Source of the DNA: Nanobdellati archaeon
GTDB lineage: Archaea > EX4484-52 > WAPT01
Reading direction: 5' to 3'
DNA length: 64,000 nt
Assembly (NCBI GenBank): GCA_015520605.1
Contig: WAPT01000024.1
Span: forward strand, 12,645 to 76,644
A model generated the notes under the pieces. That model was not told the origin of the DNA, ran no database searches, and saw nothing but the letters and a program-made list of their open reading frames with translations. The translations under genes and the position numbers were made by a program. Shown here piece by piece: positions 1-9,004 of the stretch; position 1 is the stretch's first letter; every line of letters begins with the position of its first letter.

Positions 1-421
1 GTTCCCCTCCCTGAAACTCAATCCCAATGTATTTTTTGGGAAGTTTTTCAATGAACCTCACACAATCTCTCATGATTTCTCCGTCCATCTCCACGAACCT
101 TTCGGGTGAGGATTCCGCATGGCAATACCTACATGCAAGATTACACCTCAGCGTTAGATTTATCTGAACGGTCACCATCGGCATCGAATGAATATAGCCC
201 AACCTTTTAATTATGTTCTTCAACACCCTGTTGATATTTCCCTCCGTTATGACAATGTTTCTTTCTTCTAACTTTTTCAGAAGGTCATCACTCACCTCTC
301 CCCTCCTGAGCATCCTCAGCTCCTTTTTGTCCAGAATTATCCAGTCTCCGAATCTTGTGGTCAGGAGCACTTTTCCATTGCTTAATTTTTTCTCGAAACA
401 TTCATTGGGTAGGTAGCGCAT
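1..421 (-). CDS. Radical SAM protein (second of a tandem pair), 5'-partial at the window edge. The N-terminus is present; an ~90-aa extension precedes the CxxxCxxC motif and may be RRE/PqqD-like.
   Basis: Hand translation of the minus strand from ATG at 421 gives MRYLPNECFEKKLSNGKVLLTTRFGDWIILDKKELRMLRRGEVSDDLLKKLEERNIVI...LTLRCNLACRYCHAESSPERF. The C-x3-C-x2-C motif (CNLACRYC) is typical of radical SAM enzymes. A GGGTGGTGGG Shine-Dalgarno-like run lies directly upstream, 14 nt after the stop of the preceding radical SAM gene. The ORF runs off the window start. Confidence 0.6.
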   Translation of the reverse strand, partial: MRYLPNECFEKKLSNGKVLLTTRFGDWIILDKKELRMLRRGEVSDDLLKKLEERNIVITEGNINRVLKNIIKRLGYIHSMPMVTVQINLTLRCNLACRYCHAESSPERFVEMDGEIMRDCVRFIEKLPKKYIGIEFQGGE

Positions 422-435
422 CCCACCACCCTATT

Positions 436-1359
436 TTATTGGGTTATGGGCACGATTTCATCAGCGCCGAAGTAATCGATATAAGAGTACCATACCCCCC
501 AGCATTTACTCCTCATCACGCATTTCTCGCAGGGTTCCAGCAGCCCGTAATTGTCCTCGAAACGCCTGTTTATTATCTGTTTCGTGGGTGATTTGTAACC
601 GTAAATGGTCTTCGGCTGCGGTGCGACAAACCTCCACAGGTGTTCCGGAAGGACGCAGTAGGGGAACCCGTAGAACTTAACTCTCAGTCCCGAGCTTTCC
701 ACGATCTCCGCGGCTCTGCTGAGGTTTTCGGTGATATCCGTCATTCTCACCGCAAAGAGCTCGGCATTTCTCAGAGCGTTTCCCGTTATGTCGAGAGCAT
801 GGAAGGAAAAAGCTTTAACATCGTCAAACATGCTCAGCACAAGGCTTGCGATTCTCTCCAGCTCCGTATAGTTTGCTTTCGTGACTATCGTCTTCAGCTC
901 AACGTTCATCCCCGCATCGAGAGCGTTTCTCACACCATGAATTGTTTCTCTGAAGCTCCCTCTCGCTCCCGTGACCCAGTCGTGTTTTTCCTCCTTCCAG
1001 GAGTGAAGCGCCACTATAACATGAATTATAGGATAAGCTGAAAGTCTCTCGGCAAAACAGCGCGAAGATAACCTCCTGCCGTTGGTGAGGAGAACGTAAC
1101 TCAGCCCGGGCCTTCTCGATTTTATCCTCTCAAGTATCTCAAAGAAGTCGTTCCTCACGGTTGGCTCGCCACCGGAAATTTCAAGGATTTGTATGTCTTC
1201 TGGCAGTGAAAGAACAAAATTCACAAGCTCGTTGGTACTTATTTTTTCCTTTTTCGCCCTCTCTCCGGAGCTCACCGCGCATATTTTGCAGTTATTGTTG
1301 CACTGATACCCGAAAACACAGTAGGCCTTTTTTATTTTCATCGTGCTCATATTCTTCAC
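436..1359 (-). CDS. Radical SAM protein with a SPASM/twitch-like Cys-rich C-terminal domain; putative peptide-modifying maturase.
   Basis: The ORF-track protein contains CNNNCKIC (CxxxCxxC) near the N-terminus and a GGEP glycine-rich motif. The C-terminus reads ...GFPYC...EPCEKCVMRSKCWGVW (CX2CX5C), as in SPASM domains. The codon at 1359 is GTG; in-frame ATGs at 1350 and 1341 are alternative starts. Confidence 0.8.
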   Translation of the reverse strand: MKNMSTMKIKKAYCVFGYQCNNNCKICAVSSGERAKKEKISTNELVNFVLSLPEDIQILEISGGEPTVRNDFFEILERIKSRRPGLSYVLLTNGRRLSSRCFAERLSAYPIIHVIVALHSWKEEKHDWVTGARGSFRETIHGVRNALDAGMNVELKTIVTKANYTELERIASLVLSMFDDVKAFSFHALDITGNALRNAELFAVRMTDITENLSRAAEIVESSGLRVKFYGFPYCVLPEHLWRFVAPQPKTIYGYKSPTKQIINRRFEDNYGLLEPCEKCVMRSKCWGVWYSYIDYFGADEIVPITQ

Positions 1360-1413
1360 ACATGAATGAATGCAAACTGAACTGTCCTTCTCAACAAAAC
1401 CATCTGCGATATT

Positions 1414-1707
1414 TTAGTGTCCCCCATTACTCCAGTTACTCCAATCACACCATTCACTCCAATCGTGCCAGTTTATCCAGTTGTTCCAGTGGTTGTTCAA
1501 CCAGTTGTTGTACTCATTTTGGAGATCCTTCCAGCTCTGCTCGTTTGTAACGCAGTTATGGTGAGTGGATTGGGTGTGTGCAAGTTTTGAAAGGAGAGGG
1601 AGGGAACACACCGCAGTAAACAGGAGAAACATGTTCAGCGCCCCTTCACAGTCATCCTTGGATACCAGCATGGATCTCATTTTTCTAAACCGATCTCTCC
1701 AGCTCAT
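1414..1707 (-). CDS. Trp/Asn-rich repeat peptide; candidate RiPP precursor or secreted peptide. It has an N-terminal polar region, a hydrophobic signal-like segment, and a C-terminal (W-x-x)n core.
   Basis: The ORF-track protein ends ...NNWLNNHWNNWINWHDWSEWCDWSNWSNGGH. Trp recurs every third residue seven times in a row, mirrored in the DNA as CCA every 9 nt on the plus strand. Arg codons are AGA/CGG, matching genome usage. An AGGTG Shine-Dalgarno-like motif lies 8 nt upstream of ATG 1707. The gene sits 54 nt upstream of, and co-directional with, two radical SAM genes. The hydrophobic stretch MFLLFTAVCSLPLLSKLAHT resembles a Sec signal or TM segment. Confidence 0.45.
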   Translation of the reverse strand: MSWRDRFRKMRSMLVSKDDCEGALNMFLLFTAVCSLPLLSKLAHTQSTHHNCVTNEQSWKDLQNEYNNWLNNHWNNWINWHDWSEWCDWSNWSNGGH

Positions 1708-2056
1708 TCTCTACACCTTCATAATCTTCAGACTGTTTTGATATGTCCGGTATCACCCCCTTTATCGCCAGCTCCAGCAGGAGTTTTCTTACATCTCCAA
1801 ACCTGCGTAGATTCATCTCTTCCATCTCCGCCTGCAGCAGTTCAGCAAAGAACGCATCAATGAGTTCCTCTGTGTTCTCCCCTTCAGGCGGCTTTAACTC
1901 CACAGTGATCTCCTCGATACCGTCTCCGAGCACACGAACTCTGCATGTCTCAAGCATTCTGTATGCAGCTCTCATAACAGTGCTTTTTGAATAAAGTGTC
2001 GAAGGGAGCTTTATTTTAACAATACCGTCGGCAACTTCAACAGTTTTTTTATCCAT
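1685..2056 (-). CDS. Hypothetical 123-aa acidic protein in the pilin/rSAM array, with unknown function. The track ORF extends to a GTG at 2176.
   Basis: ORF-track frame 1685..2176 (GTG start). The first in-frame ATG is at 2056 and gives MDKKTVEVADGIVKIKLPSTLYSKSTVMRAAYRM... Its stop overlaps the start of the W-rich peptide gene, which is an operon-like arrangement. Confidence 0.45.
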   Translation of the reverse strand: MDKKTVEVADGIVKIKLPSTLYSKSTVMRAAYRMLETCRVRVLGDGIEEITVELKPPEGENTEELIDAFFAELLQAEMEEMNLRRFGDVRKLLLELAIKGVIPDISKQSEDYEGVENELERSV

Positions 2057-2115
2057 ATTCCGATTATGGAATGGGGAATTTTTATTTTTAATTGATGGAA
2101 AGGGATAACCCAGTA

Positions 2116-2316
2116 TCATTTCGGCAACAGACCGGCCACATACTTCCCAATACCCACGATCTTGCCAAGCCACCACCAGTTGGATTGAATGGCACTGATG
2201 ATGGGGGATGCCACAGTTTCAAGCAGGATGTATGCGAGGGCGATACAGAGTATAAACACGACAATATAAATTATCAGCATTATCTGCCCGCCGACCAGAG
2301 CCTTTCTTCTGACCAT
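2116..2316 (-). CDS. Small hydrophobic membrane protein (66 aa, two predicted TM segments).
   Basis: ORF-track protein MVRRKALVGGQIMLIIYIVVFILCIALAYILLETVASPIISAIQSNWWWLGKIVGIGKY. It has an ATG start and lies 12 nt downstream of the preceding small ORF on the same strand. Confidence 0.35.
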   Translation of the reverse strand: MVRRKALVGGQIMLIIYIVVFILCIALAYILLETVASPIISAIQSNWWWLGKIVGIGKYVAGLLPK

Positions 2317-2328
2317 AAAATCGACCTT

Positions 2329-2484
2329 TCAGCCTCCAGCCTTTTCCCAAGGGAGGTCTGCGAGACCGAAGATTTTGTCCACAGAACCTTTACCTAATTT
2401 TATTATTATAAGTACCACGGCAGTCATTAATAATATAATAAAGATGATCTCCACCCAGGAGAGACCTTTATTGCTTCCGCGCAT
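2329..2484 (-). CDS. Small class III signal peptide (archaeal type IV pilin-like) protein of 51 aa. It falls below the ORF-track size cutoff.
   Basis: Hand translation: MRGSNKGLSWVEIIFIILLMTAVVLIIIKLGKGSVDKIFGLADLPWEKAGG. It carries a KG|LSxxE prepilin-peptidase-type motif followed by a hydrophobic helix. Its ATG overlaps the TGA of the upstream pilin-like gene (TGATG). Confidence 0.45.
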   Translation of the reverse strand: MRGSNKGLSWVEIIFIILLMTAVVLIIIKLGKGSVDKIFGLADLPWEKAGG

Positions 2485-2990
2485 CAGCACTCACCTGTTT
2501 TCCCACAAGTAGAATTAATGACTATACATATGCTCTGACAATTATCTTTGGTAATTGTGATATTAGTTTCCTTACCGTCTGCGGGTGCGGTAATTTCTGC
2601 GGTGCAGGTGCCGTCATCGGACACGGTGCACTCAGCTTCCGGCTTATCATTCGATTTTATAGTTACCGTGCCGCTTGTGGTGCCTGTGAGTTTCAGGTTT
2701 ATAACGCACTTTCCATCGTTGTTCTTTGTTATGTCCTTCAGCTCAATTGAACATGATGTGCTGCTGCCACCCCCCACGGTTTCATTGACTTTCTCCCCTA
2801 TGCCCACGGTTGTCTGATTTATCGATTGTTTTGTGGATTTGAACGCAGGAAGCAGAGTACCGCCGTATACCCGTATTATAATCGCAGCCATTATCATGAG
2901 TATAAGAAGAATTATTATTATTTCCAAAAATGAAAGACCTTTTTTATACCAATCCCGTATGTTTTGTGTAAACATTTTGCGTTGGGGCAT
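2484..2990 (-). CDS. Archaeal type IV pilin-like protein with a class III signal peptide and a Thr/Cys-rich C-terminal domain.
   Basis: The ORF-track protein has ...YKKGLSFLEIIIILLILMIMAAII (KG|LSFLE, Glu at +5) followed by a Ser/Thr/Cys-rich secreted domain. Its start codon directly abuts the stop of the upstream gene. Confidence 0.6.
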   Translation of the reverse strand: MPQRKMFTQNIRDWYKKGLSFLEIIIILLILMIMAAIIIRVYGGTLLPAFKSTKQSINQTTVGIGEKVNETVGGGSSTSCSIELKDITKNNDGKCVINLKLTGTTSGTVTIKSNDKPEAECTVSDDGTCTAEITAPADGKETNITITKDNCQSICIVINSTCGKTGEC

Positions 2991-3194
2991 TTACCATTTA
3001 CCTCCTGTTATGTTCTTCATACCTTCCTGTACCGTCTGGTTAGATTTTTCTATACCCGAACTGACGAGTTCTCCGAACTTGTGCAGGTTGGCACCCCCTA
3101 TTTTAATAATAATATATCCCATAACCATGGCGATTATGATAACTATAACTATCCAGAACACCTTCTCAAAACCCTTTCGCACACTTGCCATCAA
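2991..3194 (-). CDS. Small membrane protein, possibly a minor pilin-like protein.
   Basis: ORF-track protein MMASVRKGFEKVFWIVIVIIIAMVMGYIII... It has an N-terminal RKG motif followed by a hydrophobic helix, and a 4-nt ATGA overlap with the upstream gene. Confidence 0.4.
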   Translation of the reverse strand: MMASVRKGFEKVFWIVIVIIIAMVMGYIIIKIGGANLHKFGELVSSGIEKSNQTVQEGMKNITGGKW

Positions 3195-3379
3195 ATCACC
3201 ACTCCGAATTTCGCCCTTGCAACATCCATAATTTTGTCAAAAATACTCTTTATTTTTTCATCAAGTTTAACATTCCAGTGTTTGAAAAGTACAATAAAAA
3301 TAAAGGTCAGAAACACAAGCAACAGTATAATAAACACAACTTCTATATGAGATGTGCCCTTCTTTCCCTGCTTGACCAT
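3191..3379 (-). CDS. Small class III signal peptide (pilin-like) protein.
   Basis: ORF-track protein MVKQGKKGTSHIEVVFIILLLVFLTFIFIVLF... It has a KG|TSHIE motif (Glu at +5) and is the first gene of the minus-strand array. Confidence 0.5.
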   Translation of the reverse strand: MVKQGKKGTSHIEVVFIILLLVFLTFIFIVLFKHWNVKLDEKIKSIFDKIMDVARAKFGVVI

Positions 3380-3557
3380 AACTTATAAATGTGATACTCA
3401 CCTTAAATATATTATGGTATTTCTCAGCACGAATAGTACAACATACAGAAAGGGTCTGCAGCTGTCGATATCTCTTCTCATAACTCTCCTGTTCGGAATC
3501 CTGCTCCTCTACGTGCTCTTTCACACAGCATTGACATATTTTGGAAGGTAGTGGTTC

Positions 3558-3773
3558 ATGCCGGGAGGCACATTTAAAAGAAGGAAAGGTCTTGAATTGG
3601 GCCTAACGGAATTCGGGCTGATAATGCTGGCACTTTTCATAGGTATGATTATTTTTGTTTTTTTGACCAAGGAAGGCGGATTTCTGGATAAAGTCAGAGA
3701 AACGGGATGCGACCTCAGCAGTTTCATAACAGGTTTTCTGAAAATCATCGGTATCAATACGTCCATTTGCTAA
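3558..3773 (+). CDS. Small pilin-like / class III signal peptide protein, divergent from the minus-strand array.
   Basis: The ORF-track protein has ...KRRKGLELGLTEFGLIMLALFIGMIIFVFL, with a KG motif followed by a hydrophobic helix. It is convergent with the IleRS gene. The antisense ORFs 3521..3766 and 3603..3785 were judged less likely. Confidence 0.4.
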   Translation: MPGGTFKRRKGLELGLTEFGLIMLALFIGMIIFVFLTKEGGFLDKVRETGCDLSSFITGFLKIIGINTSIC

Positions 3774-3781
3774 TAAACGAG

Positions 3782-6700
3782 TCACGCCCCAATAATTCTG
3801 AATTTGATCCGGATTCCCTCAGTTTCAAATTCATCTCCGTCCTCCACAGTTTCAAACCTAACGGATATATTGGTGTCCTTTTCAATCATTTCCTTCCATC
3901 TCTCCACGAACTCCTTACTTCCCTCAACAGCAACCACAGCCTTATCCTCAAACCTCAGACCAAGTTCCTTCCTCGCGAGCTGAATTCTCCTTATGAATTC
4001 CCTTGCGATACCCTCCTCCTTAAGCTCGGGTGTTAGTTCAACCTTAAGAAGCACGGCGGTGTTCTTCACCACTCTGCCGTCATAGCCTTCGGGCAGGGAA
4101 ACCAACTTCACTCTAACATCGATCATGTCTCCTGTTAGTTCAAAACCACCAATCTCGATTCTTCCATCTTTTTCAAGAGCTTCGAGCACATCCTTTCCGT
4201 TTAGAGACTTGAGCGCCTCCACAACCTCTCTAGTTCTCTTTCCGAATCTGGGTCCTATAACATCATACCTTGGTCTCACTTCGTAATCTAATTGGATGTC
4301 ATCCCTTATTTTAACTCTCTTCACATTCGCGAGTTTCATGATTATCTCCTTTAGATTACCAAGAGCTTCGGTGAGCTCATTCGCGGAGAGCACAACCTCT
4401 TCGAGAGGCCACCTGAGCCTTATATTGCGGCTCTGCCTCATGGAGTTTACCTCCTCCACCACACCCATGACAAGATCCATTTTGCTTTCCAGAGTTTCGT
4501 CGATTTCCTTTTCGTTCCATGAAGGCCAGGACAGCAGATGTATGGATCCCTCTCTTACAATCTCTCTGAAAACCTTGAGATAGAGGTACTCAGCAACATA
4601 CGGTGTAAACGGCGCAAGCATTTTCAACACTTCGAAGTAAGCTCTGGAGATGACGTAATCCATGGCATCCCTGTCCACACCTTCATCGTACCTCTCCTTT
4701 GCTATTTTCAGGTAGAATCGCGAGAAGTCTTCCATCACGAAGTTCACGATTTCCCTGGCAGCGTAATGGAAGTGGAAGGTGTCTATGTACTCAGTAACTC
4801 TTTTTATGGTTGAGTTCAACCTCGAGAGCAACCATCTGTCTTCGGCCCTGCTTACATACTGTTGGTTATCAAGCCTTATCTTTACACCGTACATGTCGAT
4901 GAAATTGGAAATATTGACAAGAATGTTCATGAAGCGGAAAAGCTCCTTTGCTTCATTCATGCTGAACTTGTGCGTTTCCCATGGAGCTGTGCTGTAGCAT
5001 ACGTAAAGCCTTAGAACATCAGCACCAAGCTGCTCGAAGGCCTCCTCAGCCGAGATCACGTTGCCCAAGCTTTTGCTCATCTTCTCTCCTTTTTCATCAA
5101 GAACCCATCCGTTCATGCACACAACATCGTATGGCCTCTCTTTGAAAGTTGCAGCTGACATGAAAAGCATCGCGTGGAACCATCCTCTTATTTGATCCTG
5201 AGATTCATCAACCAGATCAACGCGCCACAACTTGTTAAACAGACCGCTATCATTGTAAGGGTAGCCGAGTGATGCCCAAGGAGCGACACCGCTCTCCACC
5301 CATATATTTATTATGTCTGGAATCCTTTTCATTTCCCCTCCACACTTCTCGCAGCGCAGCACAACTTTATCAACGACATGCTTGTGAAGATCATCAAGCT
5401 TAACTTCATTTATCATTCTCTCATCCAACTCCTTTTTGCTGCCGATGGCAATCATGTGTCCACAGTTCTTACACTCCCAGATTGGGATCGGAGCTCCCCA
5501 GTAGCGCTGCGTGGATATACACCAATCCTCTTCATTCTCCACCCAATGCTTCATTCTCTCCCTTGCAAAATCAGGGAGCCACATTGTTTCTTCGTTGAAT
5601 TTGAGCATGAGATCCTTTATCGGATCGATGCGGAAGAACCACTGGTCGGTGGTGCGATAAATTAAAGGTGTCTTGCACCTCCAGCAGAGCGGGTAGCTGT
5701 GTACTATTCTCTCAGCATGGAAGAGCAAACCTTTTGCTCTCAGATGTTCTATTATCTCCTTATCGGCATCCTTCGCAAACTTACCTTTAAGCCATCCAGC
5801 CTCGCTGGTAAACCTGCCCTCATCATCAACAGGAGAGAGCACGGGCAGGTCATAATGCTGCCCGAGCTTGTTATCCTCAGGCCCGTGGCCGGGGGCACAG
5901 TGCACTATCCCTGTACCGACATTCATCGTTACCATGTGGCCGAATACTTCCTCTTCACTCTCCTTACTTTCGATCTCTTTCTTGACCATAACCTTAGAAG
6001 CAACTACTTTCTTCAGAATCGGTACAGACAGCACTACCCTATGGGCTCTCCCGCTCTTTGCAGCTTCCTGCTGAACCGGCAGCTCTGACATGAGGGGCTC
6101 ATATTCTATCCCGTCAAGATCCTTACCCTTTAAGACTTCCACAACCTCATAACTTTCAATTCCCGCTCTTTTCATCACATCTTCAAGCCTTTTCTCAGCA
6201 AGAATGAGAATCTCATCATTGACCTTCACTTTAACGTAGTTCTCGTCTGGATGCACAACGAGAGCTACATTGGCTGGCAGAGTCCACGGTGTGGTGGTCC
6301 ACGCAAGGAGGTATTCATTCTCCTTGTCCTTAACCTTGAACTTAACATAAATGGAAGGGTCTGTGACATTCTTGTATGAATCCGTTGCCTCATACCCCGA
6401 AATGGAGGTCTGACACCTCGGGCACCAGTGGATTGGTTTTTTACCCTTGACCATCAACCCTTCATCGAAGAGCTTCTTGACGGTCCACCATGTGCTCTCT
6501 ATATAGTATGGCTCATAAGTCAAGTAGGGCTGTAGCCAACCCTTCCAGGCTGCAAGATCTTTATAGTAGTTCATCCACTCGGTAAGATTCTGAGTGGCAA
6601 ACTCCTTACACATCTTTATAAAGTTCTCAACACCAACTTTTTCTTCAATCTCCTTTTTGGATTGTATGCCAAGTCTCTTTTCCATCATGTTCTCAATTGG

Positions 6701-6973
6701 CAGTCCGTGGCAGTCAAAACCCGGCTGGAACCAGACAGCATAACCATTCATGAACTTAAACTTACCCCAGAGATCCTTGAAGACTATGGTCATGGCATGC
6801 CCGGCGTGGGGTGGCGCATTTGCATACGGAGGACCATCAAGTAGATAGAATTTCTTACCCTTTTTCTTTAGATTCTCCTCGAAGTCCACAATTTTTTCTG
6901 GGACTTTGTTCTTCTCCCAGTACGCCTTAACTTCCTGCTCGATCTTTCTGAAATCGTACTGCATGGTGATCAC
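3782..6973 (-). CDS. ileS: Isoleucyl-tRNA synthetase.
   Basis: 1063-aa class I aminoacyl-tRNA synthetase with a PPYANAPPHAGHA (HIGH-type) motif, a KMSKSLGN motif and Zn-finger cysteines. The codon at 6973 is GTG; an in-frame ATG (MQYDFRKIEQ...) lies at 6964. Confidence 0.93.
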   Translation of the reverse strand: MITMQYDFRKIEQEVKAYWEKNKVPEKIVDFEENLKKKGKKFYLLDGPPYANAPPHAGHAMTIVFKDLWGKFKFMNGYAVWFQPGFDCHGLPIENMMEKRLGIQSKKEIEEKVGVENFIKMCKEFATQNLTEWMNYYKDLAAWKGWLQPYLTYEPYYIESTWWTVKKLFDEGLMVKGKKPIHWCPRCQTSISGYEATDSYKNVTDPSIYVKFKVKDKENEYLLAWTTTPWTLPANVALVVHPDENYVKVKVNDEILILAEKRLEDVMKRAGIESYEVVEVLKGKDLDGIEYEPLMSELPVQQEAAKSGRAHRVVLSVPILKKVVASKVMVKKEIESKESEEEVFGHMVTMNVGTGIVHCAPGHGPEDNKLGQHYDLPVLSPVDDEGRFTSEAGWLKGKFAKDADKEIIEHLRAKGLLFHAERIVHSYPLCWRCKTPLIYRTTDQWFFRIDPIKDLMLKFNEETMWLPDFARERMKHWVENEEDWCISTQRYWGAPIPIWECKNCGHMIAIGSKKELDERMINEVKLDDLHKHVVDKVVLRCEKCGGEMKRIPDIINIWVESGVAPWASLGYPYNDSGLFNKLWRVDLVDESQDQIRGWFHAMLFMSAATFKERPYDVVCMNGWVLDEKGEKMSKSLGNVISAEEAFEQLGADVLRLYVCYSTAPWETHKFSMNEAKELFRFMNILVNISNFIDMYGVKIRLDNQQYVSRAEDRWLLSRLNSTIKRVTEYIDTFHFHYAAREIVNFVMEDFSRFYLKIAKERYDEGVDRDAMDYVISRAYFEVLKMLAPFTPYVAEYLYLKVFREIVREGSIHLLSWPSWNEKEIDETLESKMDLVMGVVEEVNSMRQSRNIRLRWPLEEVVLSANELTEALGNLKEIIMKLANVKRVKIRDDIQLDYEVRPRYDVIGPRFGKRTREVVEALKSLNGKDVLEALEKDGRIEIGGFELTGDMIDVRVKLVSLPEGYDGRVVKNTAVLLKVELTPELKEEGIAREFIRRIQLARKELGLRFEDKAVVAVEGSKEFVERWKEMIEKDTNISVRFETVEDGDEFETEGIRIKFRIIGA

Positions 6974-6997
6974 ACAGCTTAATGTTTAAGGGAGGAA

Positions 6998-7010
6998 AAT
7001 TTTTAAGGGT
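6998..7010 (-). promoter_or_regulatory. TATA-like box (TTAAAAATTTT on the minus strand) about 30 nt upstream of the ileS start, suggesting a leaderless or short-leader transcript.
   Basis: An AT-rich TATA-like motif lies at archaeal promoter spacing from the start codon, and no Shine-Dalgarno sequence sits between them. Confidence 0.3.
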
Positions 7011-7305
7011 AAACGAGACATGAGGAAAAACAAAATCACATTGTTGAATGAAAATTATTTTAATTTTTAAAAGGTTTTAAAAGAAAAATTCCCGTAAACA
7101 GAACTGCGTACTGCATACTGATATTAAGTTAAGGAGCACAAGCTCGAGGTTAGTAATATTCCTTTACTCTCTGAAGTCGGAATTGTATTGACGGTTTAAG
7201 ACTGCCAATGGTTTGAAGGATAAGAAACAAAAAGTGAGAGATTCTACGAGAAAAATTAATCTGGTCAATCGGTGTTAGCAGAAATAATGTTGAGGTGTCT
7301 GAAAT

Positions 7306-8229
7306 ATGAAAAACTACGAAAAAATTATGAAAAACATTGAACGGCTCGGTGAGAGATATTGCAGAAGATATCTTGACCCGTGGAACAAAGAAAGGTTGCA
7401 GACCAATTGGTGGGAAGCGCTAAAATTCCTTCTTAGCCATTCGTTTATGAGAGGAAGACGAGACAAATTGTCTAACGAATATTATTATTTTACCATTGAA
7501 ACTTTGAAAGATTATTTTTCCATCACTGATGGAGATCTGAACACATCTTATGAGAAGCTTAAAGAAAAGAAAAAATATTTTGACAAAGAATGTATTTTGA
7601 AGTTCAAGAAGAATAAAAATATTGGAAGAAAAAATAGCATTAAAGATCCAGATTTCAGGAAGGAAGTAGTAGGAAAAAATCCAATTGTAAAGCTTCTAAT
7701 TACTCCAAAAGAAGTCAAAGTAAAATGGGACAACAAAACTTACAATAAGGTAACTTGCTTAGGTAATGATGAAGATATAATGATGGTTCTTGATGTTTTG
7801 AAGCTCATTTCAGATGATGATAAGAAGAATATTTACAATTATTTAAGAGATGCGATTGTCAATTTCGGGGTTAAAGCAGCGTATGAAGAATTGATAAACA
7901 TAAGAGCTGTTTCAGATAAAATCTCCACTTTCATCATCAGAGATATTGTTTTAATGAATCCACAAATAAAAATGACATATGAGGACGCCAAATGGGCATT
8001 TCCTATGGATACGTGGGTAATTAAAATTGCCCATAAGTTAGGTTGTAATAGTGAAGATATCGAAAAAATCAAAAACCATCTAATTGATAGGTGTAGGGAA
8101 TTGGGGGTAGATCCGTTAAAGTTTGTAGCAGGGCTATGGTTCTTGGGTTACCATTCGCTTGATATATTGCTAGAAAATTGTATAGGAGAGATCAAAATTG
8201 GGGACATTACTTCGGATAGCATCGGATAA
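7306..8229 (+). CDS. Divergent HhH-GPD-superfamily (DNA glycosylase-like) protein, encoded in an AT-rich island.
   Basis: The ORF-track protein contains ...AVSDKISTFIIRDIVL...FPMDTWVIKIAHKLG. This resembles the helix-hairpin-helix plus catalytic-Asp motif (xPVDTHVxRV) of EndoIII/Ogg/AGOG-type glycosylases. The gene and its flanks (about 6974-8416) are markedly more AT-rich than the rest of the window. Confidence 0.45.
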   Translation: MKNYEKIMKNIERLGERYCRRYLDPWNKERLQTNWWEALKFLLSHSFMRGRRDKLSNEYYYFTIETLKDYFSITDGDLNTSYEKLKEKKKYFDKECILKFKKNKNIGRKNSIKDPDFRKEVVGKNPIVKLLITPKEVKVKWDNKTYNKVTCLGNDEDIMMVLDVLKLISDDDKKNIYNYLRDAIVNFGVKAAYEELINIRAVSDKISTFIIRDIVLMNPQIKMTYEDAKWAFPMDTWVIKIAHKLGCNSEDIEKIKNHLIDRCRELGVDPLKFVAGLWFLGYHSLDILLENCIGEIKIGDITSDSIG

Positions 8230-8416
8230 AAAGTTTTTCACCACATCCACCAAATTGTTTTCAGAATCCTTTTGTCCGCAAATCATCAATAGCGTTCGTA
8301 ATTATTAATTTTTATTTCGATTTCTGGGACGTTAATTTCATGCAACGGTAAAACCACCGTTAACGACACCAAAATTCAAAAACCCGAAAACATAACTTGA
8401 ATGTCCGAAGCTTGGA

Positions 8417-9004
8417 CTATTTAAACTTAGGTGTGCCGTCATCATTGAAGTACTCGCTTTCATAGGGCAGGGAGCTTGATTTACCACTTTTCTCCGAGTT
8501 CCCCTCTCTTTCTTCCTCCTCATGGCCTTTCTGCTCTTTCTTTTCCTCACTCCTGAAGATGGGTTTTATTTCTTTGGTTAGTTTCACTTTCTCCGCTATA
8601 TCGTTTAGCATGCTTTTCGCTTTTTCATCGACAGGGAACGCAACTTCAAAACCCATTCCTTGTTTCTCATCCTTGTAGCGCGGAATTATGTGCACATGGA
8701 GATGGGGTACAACCTGCCCTGCCACTCTGCCGTTGTTTATCATAATGTTGTAGCCCGCTGCGCCCAAATTCTCCACAAGATTCTTTGCTATGTGTTTGAC
8801 CACAACAAAAAGATGCGCTATTGCTTCATCACCCAGCTGGTCAAGTGTGGAAACGTGCACTTTAGGCACAACTAAAACATGGCCCTTAAACCTGGGATTT
8901 ATATCTAGGAAAGAGATCACGTAAGGATCTTCATAGATGGTGGCCGAAGGTATTTTCTTTTCAATTATCTTACAGAACACACATTCCGTATCGTAGCTCA
9001 TCAT
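8417..9004 (-). CDS. HIT-family (histidine triad) hydrolase with a charged low-complexity C-terminal tail.
   Basis: HLHVHIIPR histidine-triad motif and an N-terminal CVFCKI segment. Confidence 0.85.
   Translation of the reverse strand: MMSYDTECVFCKIIEKKIPSATIYEDPYVISFLDINPRFKGHVLVVPKVHVSTLDQLGDEAIAHLFVVVKHIAKNLVENLGAAGYNIMINNGRVAGQVVPHLHVHIIPRYKDEKQGMGFEVAFPVDEKAKSMLNDIAEKVKLTKEIKPIFRSEEKKEQKGHEEEEREGNSEKSGKSSSLPYESEYFNDDGTPKFK

Follow-up and report, generated by a model that had tools for sequence, protein, structure and literature searches.

The His-Xaa-Ser (HXS) system is represented in NCBIfam (TIGR03976-03979) by a repeat protein, HxsA, together with HxsB, HxsC and HxsD, and was described in a 2026 paper as a broad anti-phage system in E. 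coli (PMC13128918). HxsA combines five HxS repeats with a signal peptide and a domain that binds peptidoglycan, and its maturation (processing, a +8 Da change on the last repeat, and export) needs HxsB, HxsC and HxsD, with HxsC binding HxsD (PMC13128918). The +8 Da on SHRSS is the sole HXS modification measured so far, and the periplasmic product blocks phage DNA entry; the characterised HXS-type product is an exported anti-phage protein effector rather than a diffusible natural product (PMC13128918). Pseudomonadota hold 99.7% of HXS systems, the gene order is D-B-C-A in 99.6%, and the paper is silent on archaea, tryptophan and cross-links (PMC13128918). Here we analyze a Trp-repeat protein gene and its neighbours in a 64,000-nucleotide stretch of contig WAPT01000024.1 from a Nanobdellati archaeon, a member of the DPANN archaea (the whole stretch is hereafter the window). 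Because the neighbours are HxsD, HxsC-like and HxsB-like homologues, we place the locus with the HXS system, and it looks like a Trp-repeat, DPANN-archaeal branch of that system whose substrate family is recognised by no database model.

Chemistry on aromatic repeat motifs is known from two other kinds of radical S-adenosylmethionine (SAM) enzyme. Triceptide synthases (enzymes that form three-residue cyclophanes, 3-CyFEs), which are radical SAM/SPASM proteins, act on aromatic-X-X motifs, where they join the aromatic ring to the C-beta of residue three (PMC11499958). WprB, a twitch-type radical SAM enzyme with one auxiliary cluster, needs a partner of ~100 amino acids (aa) that is not a recognition element (RRE) of the kind found with peptides that are ribosomally synthesised and modified after translation (RiPPs), and it forms Trp-C5 to Arg-Cgamma links at three WPR motifs of WprA (PMC11851443). 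Our literature search returned nothing relevant on DPANN or archaeal Trp-repeat radical SAM peptides.

A conserved Trp-repeat gene in an HXS-type block

The gene carries no source annotation and translates as MSWRDRFRKMRSMLVSKDDCEGALNMFLLFTAVCSLPLLSKLAHTQSTHHNCVTNEQSWKDLQNEYNNWLNNHWNNWINWHDWSEWCDWSNWSNGGH. A preliminary description, made from the letters of the window, had read it as a peptide with seven Trp residues at exact intervals of three, and the translation and Trp positions agree. Trp occurs at residues 3, 59, 69, 74, 77, 80, 83, 86, 89 and 92, so that the period of three is exact for the seven residues from W74 to W92, with W69 standing 5 residues before W74 and W59 10 residues before W69. 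This is the only run of ≥3 W-x-x units in the six frames of the whole window, and the chance expectation for such runs is ~5e-9 given that Trp makes up 1.2% of residues in long open reading frames (ORFs). The period of three in the W-x-x reading holds; however, the more informative register is W-x-[N/D/E], read as WLN, WNN, WIN, WHD, WSE, WCD, WSN and WSN. At the DNA level the repeat appears on the plus strand as a period-9 nnnCCAnnn tract, which Tandem Repeats Finder recovers at 1429..1464 (4 copies, 77% matches) and 1468..1490. The hydrophobic stretch noted earlier in the N-terminal part is also present: a basic segment is followed by a hydrophobic helix of ~20 residues, read directly from the sequence and conserved in 14 family members, in all of which Gly22 is invariant. 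The AlphaFold2 model of the peptide is uninformative (mean predicted local distance difference test score, pLDDT, 60; predicted template modelling score, pTM, 0.23) and was used for rough helix positions alone, which place residues 1-21 in a helix and a further helix at 19-43, both with low confidence. No Pfam, NCBIfam or PADLOC model matches the peptide, and the peptide and five relatives together have zero matches to any NCBIfam or Pfam model.

We find that the reading frame is maintained across related genomes. A locus 99.97% identical to window positions 1..9000 (L007) extends the region past the left window edge, a 98%-identical copy of the peptide was recovered (P0001), and the identical sequence lies on many metagenomic contigs and metagenome-assembled genome (MAG) contigs. 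At the loci that encode relatives 62%, 47% and 44% identical to the adjacent radical SAM protein, an ORF of 96-119 aa occupies the same position each time. The orthologue alignment is conserved from M1, with M1, G22, C52, V53, W59, W77, W80, W83, W86, C87 and W89 invariant. This pattern speaks for translation from the first ATG, despite its 23-nt overlap with the end of the upstream hxsD-like gene. At 30-50% identity, relatives still share the N-terminus, both Cys residues and the Trp register. As the preliminary description had proposed for such an alignment, the Trp register is conserved while the x positions vary, and whole W-x-x units are gained or lost (6, 7, 7 and 9 Trp among orthologues); the indels are multiples of three residues. 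Compared with the closest relative there are 8 synonymous differences and 1 non-synonymous difference, giving a dN/dS of ~0.02. The peptide frame is the sole frame open in all 9 orthologues, and every other frame, antisense included, is interrupted. Frame-disrupting indels with retention of the opposite frame, which had been named as the pattern that would speak against the gene, are thus the reverse of what we see. On these comparisons, the ORF is a genuine DPANN (Nanobdellati) archaeal gene under purifying selection. The codon-usage argument first offered in its favour turned out to be uninformative: the ORF has 4 Arg codons only, and CGG accounts for 4% of the genome's Arg codons.

The window also contains a 57-aa antisense ORF at 1417..1590 (+) with P-[IV]-T-P repeats, the mirror of the TGG repeat (CCA encoding Pro). 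We rejected it as a gene, as no single antisense frame is open throughout the orthologues.

The peptide gene lies in a block of five genes on the minus strand, in the order hxsD-like, peptide, hxsC-like, hxsB-like (SPASM) and a polytopic membrane protein (Table 1). The two radical SAM genes directly downstream of the peptide had been recognised as such at the outset and are HxsC-like and HxsB-like by family search; this family identity, and the HxsD homologue upstream, had been missed. Against TIGR03977, the HxsC-like protein scores 183 bits (E=6e-54; cut-off 267.9), with the next family at 83 bits. It has a CX3CX2C motif at C17/C21/C24 and a twitch-like C-terminal set of four Cys residues (C232, C274, C277, C283), and it is 24-27% identical to proteins that their sources name HxsC. 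A Foldseek search with its model returned generic radical SAM folds only (viperin, SkfB, EpeE, SuiB), which do not discriminate among functions. The HxsB-like protein scores 250 bits against TIGR03978 HxsB (E=4e-74; cut-off 370), with PapB second at 143 bits; it has a Pfam SPASM match and the complete SPASM Cys set, and its closest solved relatives include CteB, anSME and ChlB, with SkfB also among them. The HxsD-like protein matches TIGR03976 at E=1e-7 (32-33 bits; cut-off 50), and a precomputed match to Pfam PF27806 (HxsD) is on record for it and its orthologues; where HxsD has LYW and LLNDYxLRE motifs, it reads ...TLYSK... and ...AELLQAEMEE.... By these scores the three proteins are relatives of the canonical Hxs proteins rather than confirmed equivalents.

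Table 1. Positions of the genes and peptide segments of the block, its upstream neighbours, and the membrane protein genes of related loci
Feature	Position	Strand	Remarks
hxsB-like radical SAM/SPASM gene, first 140 codons	1..421	-	Cut by the window edge; 461 aa in full on L007 (11287..12672)
hxsC-like radical SAM gene, 304 aa	436..1350	-	TIGR03977 HxsC is the top match
Trp-repeat protein gene (putative HxsA equivalent)	1414..1707	-	97 aa; stop codon inside the coordinates
Trp-rich core, residues 59-97	1417..1533	-	W59, W69, the repeat, then the tail SNGGH
Strict W-x-[N/D/E] repeat, residues 74-94	1426..1488	-	WNN WIN WHD WSE WCD WSN WSN; invariant Cys87
Variable linker, residues 44-58	1534..1578	-	Holds near-invariant Cys52-Val53; from alignments
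Gly22 and hydrophobic helix, residues 22-43	1579..1644	-	GALNMFLLFTAVCSLPLLSKLA; candidate signal or anchor segment
Basic N-terminal segment, residues 1-21	1645..1707	-	MSWRDRFRKMRSMLVSKDDCE; family consensus M..DKIKKIRK...EKT, from alignments
hxsD-like gene, 123 aa from MDKKTVEV...	1685..2056	-	TIGR03976 HxsD is the only meaningful match
Five small genes, 51-168 aa, prepilin-like class III N-termini	2116..3379	-	Immediately upstream of the block; possibly associated
Membrane protein, L007	12669..13487		
Membrane protein, L012	10284..11078		
Membrane protein, L013	10307..11146		
Membrane protein, L014	10312..11007		
Membrane protein, L016	6025..6900		
Membrane protein, L024	10353..11285		

The same block occurs in at least 9 archaeal loci, over which HxsC identity falls from 100% to ~30%, and wherever HxsC-like and HxsB-like genes occur together at an archaeal locus, the ORF directly upstream of hxsC is always a Trp-rich member of the family. 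The conserved frame, the low dN/dS and the constant position between HxsD-like and HxsC-like genes support the earlier suggestion of a translated precursor for the adjacent radical SAM enzymes, for which Trp-based cross-linking had been put forward as the probable chemistry. The resemblance to HXS thus extends over the block: the three non-substrate proteins have HxsD, HxsC and HxsB as their best family matches, the genes are tightly linked, and the putative substrate combines an N-terminal hydrophobic segment of the export type with a tandem three-residue repeat that begins with an aromatic residue. It differs from bacterial HXS in its host (a DPANN archaeon and not a member of the Pseudomonadota), in the length of the substrate (97 aa compared with ~214 aa for HxsA) and in having a fifth gene, for the membrane protein after hxsB, where bacterial HXS has four genes.

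The peptide also resembles HxsA3 and HxsA4 (NF038309, NF038313), which are ~80-95 aa long with a Lys-rich N-terminus, one hydrophobic helix and a C-terminal repeat, and which are encoded beside HxsC-like radical SAM genes (e.g. L216 and L226). However, Trp here takes the place of His, the peptide and its relatives match neither model, and the window HxsC-like protein reaches only 83 bits against HxsC4 (NF038332; cut-off 500). The likeness to HxsA3/HxsA4 that we claim is one of shared architecture only.

Diversity of the family and its surroundings

Using an HxsC-like alignment of 5 sequences, a genome scan with one genome per species returned 23 loci; a broader alignment of 8 HxsC sequences contained no stretch conserved enough for searching. 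Most of the 23 loci are from DPANN archaea, including Aenigmatarchaeota, Nanohaloarchaea, Woesearchaeota, Nanoarchaeota and a Nanobdellati MAG 96% identical to the window, and the remainder are from bacteria of the candidate phyla radiation (CPR) and a few other bacteria. Further family members came from a profile search of 1.8 billion representatives and a metagenome scan. The consensus of 14 members consists of a basic M..DKIKKIRK segment, EKTG leading into a hydrophobic helix (VLNGLVLLGA...), A-x-A..TC, an acidic linker, and W.NH(C)W with further Trp residues. In W-x-x-W units across the family, the third residue is D, N, E or Q in 45 of 48, and the second is small and variable.

The spacing of the Trp residues differs by clade. 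The window clade and the Aenigmatarchaeota have a spacing of 3, Nanohaloarchaea-type members, which are built of WWDH[ST] units, have 5/1/4, and L024, where the family member at 7605..7916 reads WKNHCWNWSWCWSWGWGWDN, has 2. The enzymes therefore appear to tolerate, or to have co-evolved with, differing Trp spacings. In the Aenigmatarchaeota, the gene after the Trp peptide is a 588-aa tandem fusion of two HxsC-like domains (L016 2856..4622, and the same in L019) that scores 300 bits against TIGR03977 and whose second half also resembles HxsC4; we detected no HxsD-like gene at this locus.

Perfect W-x-[D/N/Q/E] repeats with unrelated N-termini were found in three other peptides, P0033 (L040 975..1310), P0031 (L043 1336..1758) and P0032, all on short contigs. 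KVFSKKLxKxxVIxVP is common to P0031 and P0033, while the signal peptide of P0032 is of the bacterial type; P0033 is encoded immediately 3′ of a gene for an HxsC-like radical SAM protein. At bacterial and metagenomic loci, HxsC-like genes adjoin HxS-repeat proteins of 80-84 aa that NCBIfam recognises as HxsA4/HxsA3. An extreme expansion of the repeat is seen in Saccharibacteria (CPR), in a protein of 239 aa with ~39 consecutive His-x-Ser units (L034 4544..5260; NF038313 HxsA4, E=7e-24), whose gene lies ~2.7 kb upstream of the HxsC-like gene and overlaps the end of the HxsB-like reading frame. The Woesearchaeota and CPR loci L026-L032, L168-L170, L174, L199, L205 and L242 have a lone HxsC-like gene, with no HxsB or HxsD detected. 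Near it, an ORF of 52-78 aa (a few are called longer) ends in YN[IV]G[ML]GPG[SN]WY (e.g. L029 6906..7103); these ORFs have no NCBIfam match and look like a different candidate precursor family. A DNA scan of viral contigs for (TGGN6)5TGG gave at least 80 loci, which we rejected: nearly all of the in-frame W-x-x readings fall in short ORF fragments of simple-repeat sequence and so appear to be off-frame readings of 9-bp DNA repeats.

In all archaeal loci that extend far enough, the gene right after hxsB encodes the membrane protein (231-310 aa, with 5-7 hydrophobic segments), and the position is kept even where sequence similarity is no longer recognisable. The protein is a candidate exporter or processing factor. 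Its 272-aa representative has no Pfam or NCBIfam match.

Genes on both sides of the block have N-termini of the prepilin type. Six small ORFs of 51-168 aa, at 2116..3379 (-) and 3558..3773 (+), have [KR][GA] at the N-terminus ahead of ~20 hydrophobic residues, and in several of them +5 is Glu. On the other side, outside the window, L007 13438..17289 holds a convergent set of four genes (739, 228, 164 and 145 aa), each product having a single N-terminal hydrophobic segment; two were flagged by the [KR][GA] screen (the 164-aa one through its L012 and L013 orthologues), and the 739-aa protein is Cys-rich. Neither the six ORFs nor the four convergent genes have a Pfam or NCBIfam match. The flanking arrangement is conserved in L012, L013, L014 and L164 and was not seen in more distant clades. 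In L010, a copy from metagenomic data, runs of N at 2062..2071 and 2397..2406 (scaffold gaps) fall inside hxsC and hxsB; we considered the resulting gene calls of 176 and 516 aa as a natural variant and rejected them as an assembly artefact.

Proposed maturation and competing explanations

Taking the evidence together, we think it probable that the peptide is the HxsA-equivalent substrate of an archaeal relative of HXS, and that modification of its Trp repeats would precede export or anchoring. This reading draws on the fixed block with HxsD, HxsC and HxsB homologues, on the conserved repeat, and on the pairing of the same enzyme family with HxS-repeat proteins elsewhere. Conservation is focused on the Trp residues, the D/N before the next Trp, the two Cys residues and Gly22, while other positions and the repeat number vary. 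We envisage a cytoplasmic step in which the W-x-[D/N] units would be covalently modified by the HxsC-like enzyme with its small HxsD-like partner, acting together with the SPASM HxsB-like enzyme. The likeliest chemistry would be C-C cross-links from indole to side chain, formed once hydrogen has been abstracted from the side chain of D/N; either of the conserved residues Cys52 and Cys87 could also take part in a thioether. The basic and hydrophobic N-terminus would then route the product to export or hold it in the membrane. A cut close to invariant Gly22, or beyond the hydrophobic helix, may accompany this step, and the downstream membrane protein may participate in it. The outcome would be a rigid, Trp-rich peptide shown at the cell surface.

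For the chemistry, Trp cross-linking is our leading guess, by analogy with the triceptide synthases and with WprB/WprC (PMC11499958, PMC11851443). After HxsB, the nearest families and solved relatives of the HxsB-like protein (PapB, anSME, QhpD, CteB) act on Cys, Ser or Asp side chains, which makes the conserved D/N a plausible site of hydrogen abstraction and the conserved Cys residues candidates for thioethers. The pairing of an HxsC-like enzyme having a four-Cys C-terminus with an HxsD-like protein mirrors the WprA/WprB/WprC system at the level of architecture; the latter is bacterial and uses a W-P-R motif and one radical SAM enzyme, whereas the motif here is W-x-[D/N]. As in triceptide precursors, the core here is a repeated aromatic-X-X with a constrained third residue: from W74 on there are seven W-x-x units, or eight if WLN at W69 is included, and the third residue is D, N or E in all of them. 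A SPASM radical SAM gene is nearby, and the triceptide synthase ChlB is among the solved relatives of its product. However, the triceptide synthase models score far lower than HxsB: YhhB (NF041707) gives 75 bits (cut-off 445) against 250 for HxsB with the HxsB-like protein of the window strain, and GrrM/OscB (TIGR04261) gives ~64 bits (cut-off 310) with the L016 orthologue, where HxsB scores are 250-298 bits. Triceptides are also made by one enzyme with or without an RRE, compared with two radical SAM enzymes and HxsD here, and the present family has a hydrophobic helix in its leader and, in some members, Trp spacings of 2 or 5/1/4.

The role of the product is the least certain part of this account. 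Our best guess, following the HXS precedent, is a barrier against viruses at the level of the envelope; a surface or adhesion component is the alternative, and a filament or adhesion role is kept in play by the ~10 genes with prepilin-like signals that flank the block in the window clade. In its boldest form, which we regard as doubtful though worth stating, the proposal is that DPANN archaea (and, through related loci, CPR bacteria) have an unrecognised branch of HXS in which two radical SAM enzymes turn an exported Trp-x-(Asp/Asn) peptide, through cross-links, into a rigid poly-indole ladder that a dedicated membrane protein places at the surface, as a barrier to virus entry or as part of a pilus-like apparatus used on hosts by these episymbionts.

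Several observations weigh against assigning the peptide to an HXS-type pathway. The repeat is W-x-[D/N/E], and the peptide has no H-x-S repeats; it also has no peptidoglycan-binding domain (no Pfam domain is found, and the repeat runs to the C-terminus). The gene order is D-A-C-B here and in all archaeal relatives, compared with D-B-C-A in bacteria. All three enzyme scores are below the NCBIfam equivalog cut-offs, so the HxsB-, HxsC- and HxsD-like functions may have diverged. The leader was compared with HxsA4-type peptides as a possible homologue and the match was not significant (hhalign of the 14-member profile against a metagenomic peptide, probability 8%). With regard to chemistry, the +8 Da measured for HXS is not the -2 Da of a simple cross-link, and HXS chemistry may therefore differ; furthermore, a strict three-residue cyclophane rule fails for some members because the Trp spacing varies across the family. 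With regard to defence, PADLOC returned generic viperin-type radical SAM similarity alone and no defence genes nearby.

The alternative that fares best, though we consider it unlikely, is a classical RiPP, in which removal of a leader of ~58 residues sets free a diffusible antimicrobial or signal, namely the cross-linked Trp core in the form of a triceptide-like poly-cyclophane, with the membrane protein as exporter, protease or immunity factor. The small size and leader/core layout of the peptide, the aromatic-X-X core shared with triceptide precursors (PMC11499958), the two adjacent radical SAM enzymes of the peptide-modifying type, the RiPP maturases (CteB, ChlB, SkfB) among the solved relatives of the HxsB-like protein and the conserved downstream membrane protein would all fit such a pathway. 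A hydrophobic helix of ~20 residues, however, is unusual in a RiPP leader and more like a signal or anchor, and Pfam and NCBIfam searches of the block recognise no leader protease, ATP-binding cassette (ABC) transporter or RRE/PqqD domain. The low YhhB and GrrM/OscB scores given above also count against it, as does the only characterised member of the enzyme set, which yields a retained protein effector (PMC13128918).

Less likely again is a surface filament or adhesion system, used for example in host attachment, in which a prepilin-type peptidase cleaves at Gly22 and a pilin-like helix carries the Trp repeat, stiffened by the radical SAM enzymes, as a tiny head alongside the ~10 pilin-like neighbours. 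Gly22 directly precedes the hydrophobic helix and is the sole leader residue invariant in the 14 members; class III [KR][GA]-hydrophobic genes stand on both sides of the block in the window clade, even in L014 with its differing outer flanks, and a homologue of the Cys-rich 739-aa neighbour is also found near the block in distant clades. The fit of the leader to the archaeal class III motif ([KRDE][GA]) is partial: at least 21 residues precede G22, with E, D or T at -2 and N at +3, and the simple [KR][GA] screen picks up the neighbouring genes and misses the peptide. No pilin-like neighbours were detected at the Aenigmatarchaeota or Nanohaloarchaea-type loci, the flanks examined contain no pilus ATPase, platform protein or prepilin peptidase, and synteny among close relatives is weak evidence of a functional link.

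We give little credence to an unmodified, membrane-anchored peptide whose aromatic ladder binds the membrane interface, a glycan or the S-layer, the radical SAM neighbours being incidental. Trp-rich repeats can work unmodified, as in Trp-rich antimicrobial peptides and WSXWS-type ladders, and the uninformative structure model of the peptide is compatible with this view. It is at odds with the linkage of the peptide to hxsD, hxsC and hxsB at phylum-level distances, with genes overlapping or tightly spaced, with the pairing of the same enzyme family with His-repeat proteins elsewhere, and with P0033, an unrelated W-x-[DN] peptide that is also beside an HxsC-like gene. Finally, that the ORF is a chance or antisense by-product of the 9-bp DNA repeat, as the P-[IV]-T-P ORF on the opposite strand might suggest, is refuted by the comparative data, namely the sense frame alone open in the nine orthologues, the excess of synonymous differences, and the N-terminus, Cys residues and Trp register conserved among divergent relatives.

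Significance for DPANN archaea and the HXS family

With an HXS-type pathway acting on the Trp-repeat peptide, a system reported as almost exclusive to Pseudomonadota would reach into the DPANN archaea, and related loci occur in CPR bacteria. The locus presents a natural substitution: the same trio of enzymes occurs with a Trp-x-(Asp/Asn) repeat that has another aromatic residue and another third position and comes in differing numbers of units. The 97-aa peptide could therefore serve as a tractable substrate for finding what HxsB and HxsC do. Current pipelines do not see the peptide family, which thus marks a gap in annotation. That a five-gene block is kept in minimal genomes implies an important function at the surface. 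If the proposal is true, the locus would add new radical SAM chemistry, with multiple Trp cross-links in an archaeal protein, and would represent the first envelope-level defence or adhesion factor of the HXS type in archaea.

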